Source: Nitrosopumilus sp. (GTDB lineage: Archaea; Thermoproteota; Nitrososphaeria; Nitrososphaerales; Nitrosopumilaceae). From it: a DNA stretch of 64,000 bases. A program made the position numbers and the translations under genes. Of the stretch, positions 1-58,381 are shown piece by piece (positions within the stretch are counted from its first letter, which is position 1; every line of letters begins with the position of its first letter). The DNA is taken from NCBI GenBank assembly GCA_965205675.1, contig OZ242186.1, positions 1,664,001 through 1,728,000 on the forward strand. Reading direction: 5' to 3'. Under the pieces are notes generated by a model. That model was given only the letters and a program-made list of their open reading frames with translations, was not told the DNA's origin and made no database searches.

Positions 1-420
1 TCGCACCAAAGATTTTTGGTTTATGGAATGGTGACAGATGGCAATCAAAGTTTTTTTAGATCGTATGAAAAATTTAATTCAATTGCATTTATGGATTATT
101 TGGAAGCAGCTCGTAGAAAATTTGGAAAAATATTTGTTATCGTCGATAGAGCACCGCAACACAAAGCTAATGATGTAAAAAAATATCTGCGTAAAAACAA
201 AGATGTCAAACTGGCATATCTTCCGAGAGGTTCCCCGCATTTGAGTATGATTGAAGAGGTTTGGAGACAGTGCAAACATGTTAATGTTGAATCAGAATTT
301 TATGAATCTATTCATGAGATGAGGCATACAGTTATGGAATATTTTAGAACGCACAAATTTAATTTGAATATGTATTATTTTGCAAGAACAGTAAATTGAA
401 AAGACTTATGATCTGGGGTA
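1..420 (+). mobile_element. IS630-family transposase, C-terminal DDE part (ORF 16..399; element runs off the window start)
   Basis: IVDRAPQHK and YLPRGSPHLSMIEEVWR motifs; clearly similar to ORF 30492..30941. Confidence 0.8.
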
Positions 421-646: not shown

Positions 647-868
647 ATATGACATTATGATATTATTTACATCCATCACAAAGTTAAGGATATTTTAAAA
701 AATTAACCTTTGTTTATGCGATCATCATCATTTCTAAAATCTTTATAAAATATTCAGTACTTGGGAAAGTAACTACCTGACATCTTCCAAATAGTATTGG
801 GATTTTATTCCACTAAAGAAATCAATGATGACAATCTCAAAGATGCACTTGAGAATTTCAATTGTAAT

Positions 869-1080
869 TATCCATGTGAATTGTTTTTATACATTTCCTC
901 TCTTTCTATACATCAGGGCATGGCTTTCGCTAGAGAATGGTTTCAATCAAAAGATGGCAGACATGTATCCATACGAGACTATTCTCTCAATGCTATCTTC
1001 ATCCTAGTTAGGATTGTTCGCAGTTATTAGACGAGGCCTTGTCCCTCAATAATTACAACGCGACTTGCAGTCCTAACTAT
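869..1080 (-). ncRNA. putative bridge/seek RNA in the 3' non-coding end of IS110 element 1
   Basis: Nested stems TAGTTAGGA/TCCTAACTA, TCGC/GCGA and GAGG/CCTC around an internal loop; scaffold conserved in two other copies; loop matches the insertion flank. Confidence 0.65.
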
Positions 1081-2187
1081 AATTTTGTACAAATTCTCTC
1101 CTCTCCTTTAACATCCAATAAATCACCCTCAGGATCTTTGATGCACCAGCTACTGCAGCTTTGGATGATCCTCTTTTCTTTTTAATGCGATTGTAAAATT
1201 TTGTAATGTCACTATCCTTGGCATGAATTGCATGAGTGTGTATGCATTCTGTTAGAACCCATCTCAATGTCATGCTTCCCCTTTTTGTTATTCTGCCATG
1301 GTGTATTGTATCTGCAGAGTTTCTAACTGATGGTACAACTCCTGCATATGCACACAGTTTGTGGGAATCATTGAATCTCTCAATATCTGCAATCTCTGAT
1401 GCAATGACAAGCGAAGAATAATGCCCAATTCCCGGAATCGAGTTTATCAAAATTGCATCAGGATTAACTTTTACAGCAGCATACACTTTGGAATTAATCT
1501 CTGCAATCTGTAAATTAAGGTGGCTGATTTGTTGCAAGAATCCGTCTATTCTGTAATCTCCTAGTGCCTTGAGTCTTCTGTTGTATGTTTCAGTGAATGT
1601 AACTCCTGGAATCCTGATTCCTTCCTGTAACAATATTCCATGAACTGAATTCTTGACAGATGTTCTCCATTGGATTAGTTTTTTCCTATATCTTACAAGC
1701 TGTCTTTGTTGTACAATCTTTTTGTCTGGAACATAACATGTGGCAATGTATCCTCCTCGTAAAAGATCTGCCAATATCTTGGCATCAATCTTGTCTGTTT
1801 TCTTTTTTGATGTAGCAATTGCCTTTGTCAAATATGGGTTTGAGAGTGTGACGTTTTTGTATCCCAAAGTATCTGTGAGAAATCGATACGTGTCATACCA
1901 GACTGATGAGGATTCCATTACAATATTTGCAGAAATTGGTATTTTTGCAAAATGCTTTTTTATGGATTCATGCGTGTTATCCACTTTGTCGTTTTGTAAT
2001 ACTTTGCCTGCATCATCCATTTATTACTTGAAGAAACTTCTTGTGCAGGTCAATGCCCACAAACATGCCTTTCTTTGGATTTTTTCTAATCTGTTTGTTT
2101 GTAATCTTTTTTGGAGCCGAGTATTTACGAACCTTGGAACTAGATTCATTTTTTATGCTATCTGATTTCCTTGCTTTCTTATTCACA

Positions 2188-2421
2188 TATCCATGTGAAT
2201 CCCTTTTAACTATTGTCGGTATTTTTGCCATATTAATTACAGCTTACGCTAATACACTCATACTTTCAATCACAGATGAAACCAGACACATATCCATTCG
2301 GGGTTCTCCCCCAGTACCATCTTCATCCATTTATTAGGTGAAACCGCGGTTATAGTTTCGAGGTATTATGCATCCTCAATGTGAAAACGCGGCCAAACTC
2401 CTAACTGTAATGTTTTACAAA
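2188..2421 (-). ncRNA. putative bridge/seek RNA of IS110 element 2
   Basis: Same stem scaffold (CCGCG/CGCGG, GAGG/CCTC) as 869..1080 with different loop sequences that match this element's own junctions. Confidence 0.65.
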
Positions 2422-3518
2422 TTATTGATGACATTGAATAAATTCTCTCCTCTCTTTTAGCATCCAATAAATGACACGCAATAACTTTGATGCAGCAGCA
2501 ACTGCTGCCTTTGAGGTCCCTCTCTTTTTCTTAATGCGATTATAAAATTTTGTAATGTCGCTATCTGGTGCGTATCTAACATGTGCATGAATTGCCTCCA
2601 CTAGCAACCATCTTAGCATGGTGCTTCCTCTCTTTGTAATTCTTCCGTGATGTATTGTATCTGCAGAATTTCTCACCGATGGAACAATCCCTGCATATGC
2701 ACATAACTTGTGAGAATTTGAAAATCTACTAATCTCTGCAATTTCTGAGAATATGCTCAATGCAGTGTATGGTCCAACTCCAGGTATTGATGTCAAAATA
2801 CACACATCAGGATTATCATTTACCATGCGACGTATCATGGAATCTATCTTTGCAACCTCCTTTTTGTGAAATTTTATGCTTTGTAGGTACGAATCTATTC
2901 TATAACTCTCCAATTTTCCAAGTGCACGTATGTGTTCTGAGGAAAATGGTGTTGCTTTGATATGGATTCCCTCCTGTAGTGTAATACCATGTATGGAATT
3001 CTTCATCTTTACAATGATGCGCACAATCTTGTGTCGATGTCTTACAAGCTGTCTGTATTGCACAATTGTGTGATCTGGCACAAATGATTCTGCAATGTAT
3101 CCCTCCTCGTAGCAAATTTGCAAGATGGTACGCATCAATTTTATCAGTCTTTTTGAGTGATGATGCTATTATCTTTGTGTTGTATGGATTAGATAGTATA
3201 ACATCAAGATGTAATTTGTCTGTCATGTGTCTATAAAGGCCATACCAGACAGATGATGACTCTAAAACATATTTTGCGTTCTTTGGAATTTTGGATGTAA
3301 TTTTGCTAATAGCAGAAAAATCACTGGAAATCTTTTTGTTAAATAATAATTTGCCAATCTCATCTACTGCTGCCACCTGTACAGAGTTCTTGTGAACATC
3401 CAATCCTACAAACATCAAATATTTTTTTTCAGGAAGGGTAGTGTGTTTGTTTGCATTTCTTACTTTCTTGATACGAATGCAAGTACCATCTAATTTCCTA
3501 GCTGATTTTGGCACATAT
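2188..3518 (-). mobile_element. IS110/IS1111-family element 2 (transposase 2422..3514, +1 frameshift near 3100)
   Basis: MFVGLDVHK, KTDKIDA, IPGVG and RNSA motifs; right end TATCCATGTGAAT is the same as in element 1, with the same 54-nt spacing to a GCTTWCGCTA block. Confidence 0.85.
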
Positions 3519-4768
3519 GGTTATAGTTATTGGATTTGTGTGATTAATAGAACAAATATTTCCCAACGTACAATTTGCAATAATCCATGTGTTAAACAAA
3601 ATCAAAGGATAGAAAAAATACAAAAACAGGACAGTCGGATTGACACTGCATGTCCTTGGTCTGAATTTACCAACACATGCATAACCTGTCTCTATTCCCA
3701 CCTTCTGCGATACTGGTCCTAGATTTGCCAAATGTTTTTTGATATCTCTGCGCTTTTGATATTTGTTGCAAAAACCAGATACTGGTCTGTGGGATTTGAT
3801 TTTGTAGGTTTTGGATTTGGCAAGATAACTAGATTAAATGATTCAACATGACCAGACCCTGAATGAATCCTGTACTCAGATATTGATTTACGGTTCCCCT
3901 CAACATATTGTATTATTGCCTTTTTGATTTCAGGTGTCTTTCTTGCCGGCATGATGAAATGTGTGTTGGTTTTGCTTTAGTTCATGAATTGTTCCAGTTG
4001 AGAAAAACTCTCTATCCAACAGAACTTGTTTTGTTGCAATGTTGTTTCTGGTGACATCGCCAAATAATTTACGCACGATATCTGCTTTAGAGTTGTTTTT
4101 TCTAATTGGTACACGCCAATTTGTGCCCTACATGATTTCTCTACACATTGAATTGTTCCATACCCTTCAAACGTATCAGTGCCATTTTTGGGTCTTGATT
4201 TTATCAGATATTGTGAATCTGTTTTGTCATACCTTGGGATAATGTGTTTGTCAATTGCAACAGTTACTGGATGATTCAGCATTCCCAATTTCTTTAGGTG
4301 TGTAATTGTTTGGTCAATTCCATCAGATAATGCAACAATCATTTTCTCTTGTGGTATTTTTGCAATCTGCTTTCTAATCCAAGAGCCTGATGAAATGACA
4401 CATTCAGTCCTTATCTTCAGTTTATTTGCAGTTGATTCAGAATAACAGTTACCAAGACAACATTCCATGATGAAATGATGAATGTCCTCTGAATTGTATA
4501 TGGCATTACTTTTTTGTGAGCAAGAAAACAACAATGTTGTGCACATTATTTTAGCAATATTTGCAAATACTTGAATTGTTGAATTTCTAATGTGTGCAAA
4601 ATCAAAATTATGATTCACATTTGATGGAGCAGCATGCCTCCATCAAGCTTTTTCTATCCAAATTTGTGGCGTTGTTGATCAAATGATTGTTAGTTTGTGA
4701 TCTAAATTGGATTATTTTCCCAAGTACTGGTATAGAATATGGGACAAGATAAAGGCTCAGTTGGGGTA

Positions 4769-55442: not shown

Positions 55443-56294
55443 ATGAAAGCTCATCTAACGGTGTTTGCCTTATCTGCAATTATGATTGCAAGTATTGGTA
55501 TGGCACCAGTGTTTGGACAAGCAATACAAAGCTCGATTACTGTTGCTACAGACAAATCTTCGTATTCAGAAGGTGAAACAATTCTAGTAACAGGTGAAGT
55601 GAAAGATCTGTATTCTGGAACCCCAGTAAGTGTAATTGTCAAAGCTCCTAATGGAAACTTGGTATCAATTGCACAAATTACAATAGGTGCCGATAAAAAA
55701 TTCAGTACCGAGGTAGTAGCTGGAGGATCATTAATGAGAACAGAAGGATCATACATAGTTACCGTTCAATATGGTACAGAAAATCGTTCAGCAACTACAA
55801 CATTTGACTTTGGAGGATCTACAATGATAGATAAACCAATAGATGTAGATGGTTCAACGATAACTGACAAAACAGTTCTGATTACAGGTGCTGATGATGT
55901 GATAGGATATGAAATTACAGGAGGGAAACTACTCAGCATTACACCTGATGTGGATGAAAAATCACTTGTAATCAGCATTGATGCCATAGAAGACGGAACA
56001 TTGACACTCACAATACCAAGAACAGTATTTGATTCAGTAGATGAAAATGGGGATGATGTTGAAGCGTTCGTCTTAATTGATGCAGAAGAAGCATACGATT
56101 ATGATGAAGTAACAACATCAGAGGATAGAACACTCACCATAGAATTCCCAGCAGGTGCTGAAGAGATTGAAGTGATTGGTACATTTGTGATTCCAGAATT
56201 TGGTACAATCGCAGCTATGATTTTAGCAGTAGCAATTATCTCAATAATTGCAATTTCTGCAAAGTCAAGACTTAGTATTATACCAAGATACTAA
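55443..56294 (+). CDS. PEFG-CTERM surface protein 1 (start taken at MKAHL)
   Basis: Signal peptide; C-terminal IPEFG + TM helix + basic tail. Confidence 0.9.
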   Translation: MKAHLTVFALSAIMIASIGMAPVFGQAIQSSITVATDKSSYSEGETILVTGEVKDLYSGTPVSVIVKAPNGNLVSIAQITIGADKKFSTEVVAGGSLMRTEGSYIVTVQYGTENRSATTTFDFGGSTMIDKPIDVDGSTITDKTVLITGADDVIGYEITGGKLLSITPDVDEKSLVISIDAIEDGTLTLTIPRTVFDSVDENGDDVEAFVLIDAEEAYDYDEVTTSEDRTLTIEFPAGAEEIEVIGTFVIPEFGTIAAMILAVAIISIIAISAKSRLSIIPRY

Positions 56295-56439
56295 ATTTCA
56301 TCTTTTTTCTATTTTTTGTTCTTTCCAAAAAATACTTTAGAGTATCTTCAACCATACACTCAAATATATTCCAGAATTTTTCTAGCTTGCCATTTGTTTG
56401 AAAGTGTCGTATTCTGATCTAGGAATGCTTTACATGATT

Positions 56440-57132
56440 TATCCATGTGAATTGTTTTTATACATTTTCTCTATTTCTAAACATTAGGGCATAGCTTTCG
56501 CTAAAGAAGAATTACAATCAAAAGATGCGGACATGTATCCATACGAGACTATTCTCTCAATGCTATCTTCATCCTAGTTAGGATTATTCGCAGTTATCAG
56601 ACGAGGCTTGTCCCTCATAAATTCTAACGCGACTTGCAGTCCTAACTATAATGTTCCACAAATTCTCCCCTCTCCTTTAACATCCAATAAATCCCCCTCA
56701 GAATTTTTGATGCGCCAGCTACTGCAGCTTTGGATGAACCTCTTTTCTTTTTAATGCTATTGTAAAATTTTGTAATGCCGCTATGGCAGTATAACAAAAC
56801 GAGGAAGCATGACACTGCGATGGGTTCTAACAGAATGTGTTCACACCCATGCAATACATGCCAAGAATGGTGTATTATATCTGCAGAATTTCTAACGGAT
56901 GGAACAACACCTGCATATGCACATAATTTGTGGGAATCGTTGAATCTTTCAATATCTGCAATTTCTGATGCAATAACAAGCGAAGAATAATGCCCAATTC
57001 CTAGAATCGAGTTTATTAAAATTGCATCTGGGTTGCACTTTACAGTAGCATACACTTTGGAATTAATCTCTGCAATTTGCAGATTAAGATGGTTAATCTG
57101 TTGTAGAAATCCGTCTATTCTGTAATCTCCTA
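56440..57132 (-). mobile_element. truncated IS110 element 3 (close relative of element 1) retaining its 3' non-coding/bridge-RNA end (56440..56650)
   Basis: High nucleotide similarity to 869..1562; internal 82-bp inversion. Confidence 0.85.
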
Positions 57133-57460
57133 ATTACAATAGATATCGGTAAATCGTTTTGTTCTACTGCAACATGAATTTTTGTGCCTGTAATCTTTTT
57201 GAAACCATCTCTTCTTATATCGTTATTGTGATTTTTCTAGGTGTTTTGTATTGCAAGTAGATTTGCTGTACTCTTCTAGGCGTTATCTTAAGAATATCCG
57301 AAATGCCTGAATTCTTGATTTTCTCATTCTTTTAATTTTATAATCGCGCTGATCCTATCTTTATCTAACTTTGCCATCGACATTCCATGATATACCTACA
57401 CAGACGATAATATGGCCATAATGCTCTCCTAGTTAAGGGAGGAAATAATTTCTGGGAAAG
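57133..57460 (-). pseudogene. IS debris: IS5-type DDE fragment (~57134..57210) and IS481-like N-terminal HTH/left end (~57211..57460)
   Basis: DGFKKITGTKIHVAVEQNDLPISI; MAKLDKD...ILKITPRRVQQIY. Confidence 0.55.
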
Positions 57461-57517: not shown

Positions 57518-58381
57518 ATGAATTTTAAACGTTCTACAACATCAATAACAATAGCCCTCATGGCACTGTCATTAATTTCAATGACTTCAATTCAACAAGA
57601 CGCTTTTGCTCAAACTCTTGGAATGTCCATTACTGCAACAGCTGATAAAGGATCAGATACAATTACTATCATAGGTAAAACAATTTCTGACATTACAGAT
57701 GTTACATTTACCGTAACATCCCCAAGCGGAAATAATGTAGTAGATCTTGGTCAAATATCACCAGACGAAAATGGAGATTTTGTAAAAGAATTCAAAGTAG
57801 GACCAACATGGAATGAAAATGGATTTTATGAGATTAAAGCAATGCAAGGTACGGGTGCAAATTCACTATATACACTAGAAGTTCTTGTTGAAGTAGCAAA
57901 CGGTATGACTGAAAGAACTTCTGCAACTGAATCTAATTTAGATACAGGAATTTTCACACCAAATGAAAACAATGTTGCAACAGATGCAGGACTTATGCTT
58001 GACGCAATAAGTTTCGAGAAAGGTTCCTCAATGTTTGAAATAACTGGAATGACAGACAGAGTAAGTCAAGATATCACATTAACTTTAACTGCACCAAATG
58101 GAAATGTAGTAAACGTTGATCAAATATCACCAATGCTTGATGGGGAATTTGCTGCCGAGATTATAGTCGGAGGACCATTGTGTAAACAAGATGGTTTTTA
58201 CACTGTAACTGTACAACAATTTAACGATCCAAAATATACTGCTACAGATAAAGTAGATATTTTAGATTGTAAAGTAGTACCAGAATTTGGTACAATCGCA
58301 GCTATGATTTTAGCAGTAGCAATTATCTCAATAATTGCAATTTCTGCAAAGTCAAGACTAAGTATTATACCAAGATACTAA
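57518..58381 (+). CDS. PEFG-CTERM surface protein 2 (two repeated Ig-like domains)
   Basis: Signal peptide, duplicated T.T.P.GN.V...QISP..DG.F motif, PEFG tail. Confidence 0.9.
   Translation: MNFKRSTTSITIALMALSLISMTSIQQDAFAQTLGMSITATADKGSDTITIIGKTISDITDVTFTVTSPSGNNVVDLGQISPDENGDFVKEFKVGPTWNENGFYEIKAMQGTGANSLYTLEVLVEVANGMTERTSATESNLDTGIFTPNENNVATDAGLMLDAISFEKGSSMFEITGMTDRVSQDITLTLTAPNGNVVNVDQISPMLDGEFAAEIIVGGPLCKQDGFYTVTVQQFNDPKYTATDKVDILDCKVVPEFGTIAAMILAVAIISIIAISAKSRLSIIPRY

Follow-up and report, generated by a model that had tools for sequence, protein, structure and literature searches.

The window examined here, a stretch of 64,000 nucleotides (nt) from Nitrosopumilus sp. (contig OZ242186.1, positions 1,664,001 to 1,728,000 of the forward strand), holds two insertion sequences, E1 and E2, the latter lying inside the former, together with a decayed third copy, E3. 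These elements very probably belong to the IS1111 type of the IS110 family, whose DEDD recombinases are RNA-guided, each being furnished at its 3' end with a guide RNA that reads the target. Family membership, the element ends, the empty target, the covariation of the stems, and the covariation of the loops with the flanking DNA are all supported by the present analysis. The mechanism itself is already known from bacteria; what is new is a naturally diversified archaeal family of seekRNAs or bridge RNAs. A naturally reprogrammed thaumarchaeal bridge-RNA family had been proposed in the first-pass annotation of this DNA, and the proposal is borne out by 26 classes of right guide and 14 classes of left guide, with the hallmarks of IS1111 elements present. 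The genome holding the window is a single contig of 2.01 megabases with 66% A+T, in which E1 occurs as 10 full copies of at least 98.9% identity and E2 as eight full copies plus a left-truncated one retaining its guide RNA. A third subfamily, E10, has four copies (approximately 68% identical), and several decayed relatives, E3 among them, are also found.

Read on the minus strand from 3534 to 862, the locus consists of TCCAA, TAACTA, E2 (3523..2190), the 1319-nt remainder of E1 (2189..871), and TAATTACAA, the total size of E1 being 1325 nt and the insertion point of E2 lying six bases inside the E1 left end. The features concerned are as follows.

862..870, minus strand: right half of the E1 target, TAATTACAA; empty sites read TCCAATAATTACAA
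871..2189, minus strand: main body of E1, IS1111-type, from TATGTGAAT... (remainder of the left end) to ...ATTCACATGGA (right end); boundaries from empty sites and the contig joint 867->3527
1073..2186, minus strand: E1 transposase gene, with a GTG start in the left subterminal repeat, broken by a 2-nt deletion near 2020..2024
2190..3523, minus strand: E2, the other IS1111-type element, 1334 nt long, running from TAACCATATGTGCC at its left end to ...GATTCACATGGA at its right
2422..3514, minus strand: E2 transposase gene, its frame interrupted by a single additional base at approximately 3101 (GGAGGG-A-TAC)
3524..3529, minus strand: first 6 nt of the E1 left end, TAACTA, cut off from the E1 body by E2
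3530..3534, minus strand: left half of the E1 target, TCCAA, from empty sites and copy comparison

Uninterrupted E1 copies run ...TCCAA and then TAACTATATGTGAAT. Three uninterrupted paralogous sites are TCCAATAATTACAA, and filled sites are TCCAATAA(CTATATGTGAAT...ATTCACATGG)ATAATTACAA, the inner ends of the element being CTAT...CATGG. The contig joint 867->3527 was met in two public runs, in one contig each, with four letters that fit either side; this record carries 9+18 other letters and may stem from a paralogous empty locus and not from an element-free strain. The comparison with public runs covers assembled contigs only, circles, RNA ends, and rare forms being outside its reach. ATAA is taken as common to E1 and its target because of the comparison of empty with filled sites and because of the contig joint, the target from empty sites being TCCA-ATAA-TTACAA. 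Written by the IS1111 convention, E1 is TAACTAT-ATGTGAAT...ATTCACAT-GGA in the target TCCAA followed by TAATTACAA, and E2 is TAACCAT-ATGTGCC...ATTCACAT-GGA, set in the E1 left end between TAACTA and TATGTGAAT and sharing ATA. The 7-nt left and 3-nt right extensions fit the empty sites, and the 4-nt ambiguity (ATAA) allows other cuts too. Elements start with TAACTAT or TAACCAT and finish with ...CACATGGA, and their subterminal inverted repeats are ATGTGAAT and ATTCACAT (8 base pairs, bp) in E1 and ATGTG(CC) and ATTCACAT in E2. All 10 E1 copies are then followed by TAATTA(C/T)A, across eight distinct right flanks.

Two features of the first-pass annotation do not survive these boundaries. It had placed the element ends at ATGTG...CATGGAT around an 'AT' core, and empty sites put the starts seven bases earlier. 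Its donor junction, ATGG-AT-ATGTG, is rejected, given that the ends seen at empty sites yield CACATGGA joined to TAAC(T/C)ATATGTG; the predicted junction of the joined ends is accordingly CACATGGA and then TAACCATATGTG. An insertion of E1 next to E2 was also considered and rejected, the first 6 nt of E1 being found beyond the far side of E2.

The long non-coding regions of the two elements lie 3' of the transposase gene (tnp), at 871..1072 in E1 (202 nt) and 2190..2421 in E2 (232 nt), whereas the GTG is preceded by just 9 nt at the left end. Across subfamilies, these 3' regions align with their stems kept and one internal loop hypervariable, in agreement with the three 3' ends (869..1080, 2188..2421, and 56440..56650) to which common stems and a variable loop had been ascribed. 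The putative RNAs and the strands of their loops are located as follows.

956..1078, minus strand: E1 two-lobed guide RNA core, matched by the covariance model R1 at 127.2 bits (E 4.4e-24) within the non-coding end 871..1072
2281..2406, minus strand: E2 two-lobed guide RNA core, matched by R1 at 94.9 bits (E 3.7e-17)
1049..1058, minus strand: E1 target loop 5' strand, UUGUAAUUAU, complement of ATAATTACAA (shared ATAA and right target), 10 of 10 in the window
1022..1031, minus strand: E1 target loop 3' strand, UCUAAUAACU, in the sense of the left target TCYAA and the first 5 nt of E1 itself, TAACT
2379..2387, minus strand: E2 target loop 5' strand, UUUUCACAU, complement of the repeat ATGTGAA(T)A that is left subterminal in E1- and E10-type siblings
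2348..2358, minus strand: E2 target loop 3' strand, AAACUAUAACC, made of the first 6 nt of the host element (T/AAACTA) and the first 5 nt of E2 itself (TAACC)

The sample behind the family-wide results comprised 28 contexts from the genome and the best 80 of 370 relatives' loci, the latter mostly from Nitrosopumilus, Nitrosopumilaceae, and Cenarchaeum assemblies. Target loops were located by regular expression (78 loops in 75 of the 108 contexts), and rows without a recognisable right end (one) or left end were excluded from the respective flank test. Over 30 distinct sequences, a six-helix structure has 95.8% of its cells paired, against 32-44% when the partners are slid, and compensatory changes fall in 14 of 31 pairs, against 4.5±1.3 in shuffles (0/500). 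The covariance model R1 has 29 instances in this genome and recovered 12 further full-length instances in 33 relatives' loci, which nhmmer had missed or matched in part. The guide-RNA family is absent from Rfam: at the gathering score only three transfer RNAs were found in the window, and a search of 800..3600 at E<0.1 gave no match.

Within the window, the correspondences between loop and flank reported by the first-pass annotation were reproduced. The E1 loop at 1049..1058 (reverse complement TTGTAATTAT) is fully complementary to ATAATTACAA, its right flank (862..871), at 10 of 10 positions, and the match of TCTAATA (1025..1031) to TCCAATA (3528..3534) at six of seven extends to nine of ten when TCTAATAACT (1022..1031) is set against TCCAATAACT. 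In E2, TTCACAT (2379..2385) complements 2182..2188, and AACTATAACC (2348..2357) does equal 3519..3528 at 10 of 10; what had been called its left flank is AACTA of the E1 end plus TAACC of E2, a confusion that arose because the ends had been placed at ATGTG, so that the 'left flank' took in the own ends of E1 and E2.

That loops covary with their targets over further copies, as the same annotation had anticipated, holds for both loop strands, alongside the covariation of the stems. The right guide, defined as the 10-nt 5' strand of the loop in reverse complement, matches the sequence immediately after ...CACAT(G/A)GA with a mean best match of 7.73, against 5.84±0.21 when guides are permuted (0/5000; 26 guide classes, 66 distinct guide-flank pairs), and with a longest exact run of 6.47, against 3.86±0.22 for permutation among classes (0/5000). 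Eight or more matches of 10-11 are reached by 16 of the 26 classes, and 23 of the 26 outscore the flanks of other classes. The E1 class averages 9.0 matches over nine distinct guide-flank pairs and the E2 class has 8/10 at three distinct flanks; among relatives, examples are L022 (ACAATCATAA, 10/10), L040 (ACATACAAAA, 10/10), L077b (AGTTGTCTG), and L025-36 (TGATTCATA, 15 distinct sites). The left guide, namely the five bases of the loop 3' strand before the constant TAAC(T/C), repeats the left flank's final five bases at 3.26 of 5 positions, against 1.71±0.27 permuted (0/10000; 14 classes, 33 pairs), with 4.5/5 for the class AACTA of E2. At distant loci found only by the covariance model, the left guide scores 5, 5, 5, 5, 5, 4, and 2 of 5 (seven loci with a left end) and the right guide 4-7 of 9-11 (10 loci, none of them used in model building). 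The top-strand match sits 5' of the bottom-strand match, and the two overlap in the target.

It could be held that the protein alone selects the target, that the 3' region is a terminator or a regulatory untranslated region, and that the matches are chance agreements in AT-rich DNA. Short AT-rich matches are indeed common in a genome of 66% A+T, where ATAATTACAA occurs 49 times against approximately 33 expected from base composition, and three of the 26 right-guide classes show no excess on their own flanks. Against this, the permuted guides of either side never equalled the observed score, so that the claim of matches beyond chance stands; distant members excluded from the model agree, and the loops change while compensatory changes preserve the stems. 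Selection by the protein alone is therefore scarcely credible.

The protein evidence points to the same family of guided recombinases. The E1 open reading frame (ORF) matches in Pfam the DEDD_Tnp_IS110 (PF01548, 3.8e-19) and Transposase_20 (PF02371, 3.5e-21) domains, as do both halves of the broken ORF of E2, and the combination of an N-terminal DEDD domain with a C-terminal Transposase_20 domain that marks the IS110 family is thus found. The NCBIfam model NF033542, 'IS110 family RNA-guided transposase', scores an intact E1 copy at 228.8 bits and E10 at 249.9 bits (cut-off 140). The closest solved structures are ISCro4 (9t56, 4.8e-12) and IS621 (8wt6, 2.9e-9), the alignment with ISCro4 pairing GIDLHK with GIDVSK, MESSS with MEATS, KTDKIDA with KTDAVDA, and PSVRNSAD with PRRYESGS. 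The traits of IS1111 elements are likewise present, namely subterminal repeats whose 8 bp fall in the group's range of 7-17 bp, a left extension of 7 nt (7 or 6 in the group) and a right one of 3 nt without target duplication, and a long non-coding region 3' of tnp.

The second lobe of the RNA would correspond to the ends of the element itself, and its strands were assigned as follows.

990..999, minus strand: E1 second lobe 5' strand, AAGAUAGCAU, with AUAG as the complement of CTAT, positions 4-7 of the left end
965..973, minus strand: E1 second lobe 3' strand, UAUGGAUAC, in which AUGGAUA reproduces the predicted circle junction, 5 nt from the close of the right end and 2 nt from the start of the left end
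2287..2297, minus strand: E2 second lobe 3' strand, AUGGAUAUGUG, whose AUGGAUA fits the junction, UGUG being partly in the predicted basal stem

The 11-mer ATGGATATGTG at 2287..2297 had been equated in full with the junction of the joined ends; its location and the fit of ATGGATA to the junction were sustained, and the full 11-mer proved to be the E2 right end plus right flank. Across subfamilies, AT(G/A)GATA in lobe 2 tracks the right end CACAT(G/A)GA, and ATAG or ATGG in the same lobe goes with CTAT or CCAT, respectively, at the left end; each of the four combinations occurs, with matching ends.

An element comprises a 7-nt left extension (TAACTAT or TAACCAT), the 8-bp repeat ATGTGAAT, tnp opening from the GTG of that repeat, 200-230 nt of non-coding sequence, and ATTCACAT with GGA. 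In the mechanism proposed from the correspondences above, the non-coding region would yield a two-lobed RNA of the same sense as the transposase gene. The 10-nt 5' strand of lobe 1 would pair with the top strand over the right target half, including part of the shared ATA(A), and the 3' strand, having the sense of approximately the final 5 nt on the left side of the target with the first 5 nt of the element next to it, would pair with the bottom strand. Lobe 2 would read the ends of the element, its 5' strand being set against left-end positions 4-7 and its 3' strand equalling the circle junction of the joined ends, and the recombinase would exchange strands within the shared ATA(A). By analogy with work on IS1111 elements and IS621, the RNA would be bound to the transposase, a circle would be the intermediate, and the position of the cut would be the corresponding one.

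The conserved region might conversely work as DNA, either as a folded single strand or through DNA-DNA pairing, and the complementarity described above fits RNA and DNA alike. Near-fixed G-U pairs are seen, though, on the transposase-sense strand only (U-G in 30/30 at columns 116-135 and G-U in 27/30 at columns 29-76); being A-C mismatches on the opposite strand, they argue for an RNA of the transposase sense. For the family of the protein, moreover, co-purifying RNA and RNA-dependent transposition are on record in PMC11187229 and echoed in the NCBIfam name. Action as DNA is hence very improbable beside a guide RNA.

E2 offers a view of the target loop at work on its own relatives. All eight E2 copies are preceded by TAACTA (five) or TAACCA (three) and followed by TATGTGAATAA, which is the left end of an E1- or E10-type element, and the relatives' guide RNAs with an E2-type target loop (L041, L044, and L077) lie within a sibling's left end in three of three cases. 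E2 sits inside E1 because its loop is programmed for sibling left ends (AAC(T/C)-ATA-TGTGAATAA). The uninterrupted sequence AAC(T/C)ATATGTGAA occurs at 10 sites in the genome, all of them sibling left ends (six E1-like and four E10-like). L041:1273-1451 and L044 (same coordinates) are chimeras that combine a target lobe identical to that of E2 with an E10-like second lobe and an E10-like right end (CACATAGA), a combination suggesting that elements swap target and donor lobes as modules. One public-run contig (X6 record 27, at 2187) has an E2-like right end and then a different flank, TATACTGAATATT... as read on the strand of the element, with no sibling left end, and may represent an off-target or alternative target.

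The arrangement of E2 within E1 could alternatively be a composite of single origin, multiplied since then through duplication, through homologous recombination, or by moving as a whole. Two E2 copies (996444 and 930001) do have the same left flank, several E1 copies share right flanks, and mixed contexts reveal recombination between copies: the E2 copies 63663 and 571887 have a TAACCA stub on the left and an E1-type remainder on the right, and 63663 has tandem TAACTA-TAACCA, as would fit an E2 that had entered the left end of another E2 or of an E10, with copies recombining afterwards. On the other hand, E2 has at least six different left flanks, one host is E10-type (953069), E2-like elements of other genomes are also inside sibling left ends, and the insertion point with both flanks is exactly as the loop strands of E2 specify. 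A single origin is accordingly regarded as improbable, and guided insertion of E2 into sibling ends is preferred. More tentatively, and with the balance falling slightly short of even, E2 could be a guide-RNA-programmed parasite of its relatives, one that splits the host end and puts its own promoter-like box just upstream of the host transposase start; if true, sibling insertion sequences would be competing, or hitch-hiking on one another, by means of RNA guides.

Several observations weigh against the guide-RNA reading and temper its standing. Three right-guide classes fare no better on their own flanks, namely TTAGAATTTAT (which includes E3), TTAAAGTTGTT, and TTTTAGATGTT; the E3 class has 6.0 matches on its own flanks against 6.7 for those of other classes, and E3 is treated as decayed because of this weak match. 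The left-guide class GTCAA scores 0/5, worse than on the flanks of others, and the E10 left guide 1.8/5. From one subfamily to another, the right guide changes its register against CACATGG by 1-3 nt, which is not obviously compatible with a rigid loop geometry. The basal stem of lobe 2 has zero compensatory changes in either of two alternatives, and the covariation of the donor lobe involves two states on each strand, from which L089, L061, the chimera E5, and the decayed copies E8 and E9 depart. R1 found nothing in 20 of the 33 further loci, including those of Thermoplasmatales (L072, L076) and bacteria (L084, L091), some contigs among these negative loci stopping near the gene. The RNA nature of the guide is argued from homology and the G-U pairs, and among the public sequencing runs listed for this sequence none is of RNA. 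Both transposase copies in the window are frameshifted, as are most E1 and E2 copies genome-wide. As a separate observation, the E10 right guide in this genome (L006-L009; reverse complement ATATGTTTAA) fits its flanks TATGTGTTTA worse than does a relative's guide (L045/L046; ATGTGTTTAA, nine matches), which looks like drift of the guide after insertion.

The state of the genes bears on whether the system has become a fossil here, its guides recording past insertions with no present movement. Eight of the 10 E1 copies carry a common 2-nt deletion (alignment columns 168-169) and all eight E2 copies lose the frame at a single site, where six have the extra base; E3 and E5-E9 are decayed, with guides that fit their flanks poorly. 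Pulling the other way are the 98.9-100% identity of the copies, the intact frames of two of the 10 E1 copies (371 amino acids, aa) and of three of the four E10 copies, the contigs of three public runs that lack the frameshifting base of E2 (333-520 nt matched, 0-1 other letters), and the targets that still stand empty, eight for E1 and 10 for E2. A fossil system is judged unlikely, with an appreciable residual chance. The E2 site (approximately 3095..3105; columns 427-433) is an indel hot spot, one copy being without GGG and one without ATA; otherwise, these copies differ chiefly by substitutions, the two 3-nt deletions lying at the frameshift site. A programmed frameshift was rejected in view of a relative's E2-like element with an uninterrupted 363-aa frame and of the three runs' contigs without the extra base, which in the genome copies may be either a true mutation or an assembly error.

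With its GTG 9 nt from the end of the element, the transposase gene has no room for a promoter of its own. One feature of the right end is of interest in this connection.

884..891, minus strand: A/T-rich octamer TATAAAAA, outward-facing, 21 nt from the right end, its position conserved in all subfamilies; candidate TATA box

In a circle, this octamer would come to lie approximately 30 nt upstream of the GTG, the typical spacing between an archaeal TATA box and a leaderless messenger RNA, and would be a candidate archaeal junction promoter for a leaderless transcript of transposase and guide. A junction promoter in an analogous arrangement is described for ISEc11 in PMC11187229.

The remaining copy and the surroundings of the elements may be noted briefly.

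56443..56660, minus strand: E3, decayed third copy, with right end and guide RNA kept (R1 match 56526..56647) and the upstream transposase remnant rearranged

The upstream remnant of E3 (56660..57140) is scrambled, and approximately 56783..56860 reads in the opposite direction, either as an internal inversion or as a second fragment. The genes flanking it (56180..56295 and 58280..58380) have the same C-terminal tail, ...PEFGTIAAMILAVAIISIIAISAKSRLSIIPRY, which resembles what we take to be the archaeal PEFG-CTERM sorting signal. The sequence in which the E1 target lies has paralogues at three other places in the genome, and the 50 nt left of one E1 copy (genome 1109382..1109452; ...GATATTGATAGTTTTTT) recur approximately 28 times at 94-100% identity, which puts the E1 target at the edge of another abundant repeat. 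ORFs of 77 and 213 aa (3719..4618, minus strand) adjoin the insertion site and have no Pfam match, and the 3' part of a DDE_3 (IS630/Tc1-like) transposase occupies 1..399 on the plus strand, cut by the window start (PF13358, 2.7e-18).

RNA-guided IS110/IS1111 recombinases are under development as programmable genome-writing tools, and those characterised so far are, to our knowledge, all bacterial. The present family constitutes a natural experiment, in which one closely related scaffold occurs in Nitrosopumilaceae with at least 26 right-guide and at least 14 left-guide variants, each beside its own insertion sites, and in which the variants reveal the loop positions that can be reprogrammed, the bases read per side, and the mismatch and register shift tolerated. 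Further gains are archaeal orthologues with intact genes (loci L010, L006, and L041), a covariance model for the family, and an element that targets its siblings' ends. For ammonia-oxidising archaea, the family accounts for many site-specific repeats and for hot spots of rearrangement.

In the literature, bridge RNAs were predicted in the right end of 93.0% of the IS1111 elements in ISfinder (PMC11208160), 662 archaeal IS110 recombinases were placed in several clades (preprint 10.1101/2024.06.21.599552), and a survey from 2026 of insertion sequences in archaea has a single mention of IS110 and gives one Nitrosopumilus genome an insertion-sequence content of 14.95% (PMC13343696). In the literature searched, no published guide RNA was found for thaumarchaeal or Nitrosopumilus IS110 elements, and the ISfinder bridge-RNA table of Durrant et al. 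may include archaeal members.

The closest known systems are the IS1111 elements ISEc11, ISKpn4, ISPa11, and ISPst6, for which a 3' seekRNA was reported by Siddiquee et al. 2024 (PMC11187229). The likeness extends to the DEDD transposase, the subterminal repeats, the 7-nt and 3-nt extensions, the long 3' non-coding region, the choice of different sites by different relatives, and (section 9) a top-strand match placed 5' of the bottom-strand one, the two overlapping in the target. The present elements are set apart by their archaeal host (Nitrosopumilaceae), by being described from sequence alone, by a repeat of 8 bp where 11-13 is usual, by a transposase frame that opens inside the left repeat, and by a candidate junction promoter with a complete TATA-like box in the right end where IS1111 elements have a split -35/-10. 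The bridge RNA of IS621 and the IS110 group (Durrant et al. 2024, PMC11208160; 8wt6) is alike in its protein family, its two loops for target and, as proposed here, joined ends, its use of one loop strand per DNA strand, and its short common core. It differs in that the RNA of IS621 is in the left end and the one here in the right end, 3' of the gene, with the order of guides reversed, the shared sequence being ATA(A) and not CT and the donor-lobe strands being short (4-7 nt matched). ISPpu9 of Pseudomonas putida with its Ssr9 (PMC12288879), likened here by description only, also belongs to the IS110 family, has a small RNA gene downstream, and occurs in multiple copies in repeats; it is bacterial. 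E2, lastly, resembles a known IS1111-type element that specifically targets the end of another mobile element, and differs from it in that its target is the left end of its own siblings of E1 and E10 type, between the first 6 nt and the subterminal repeat.

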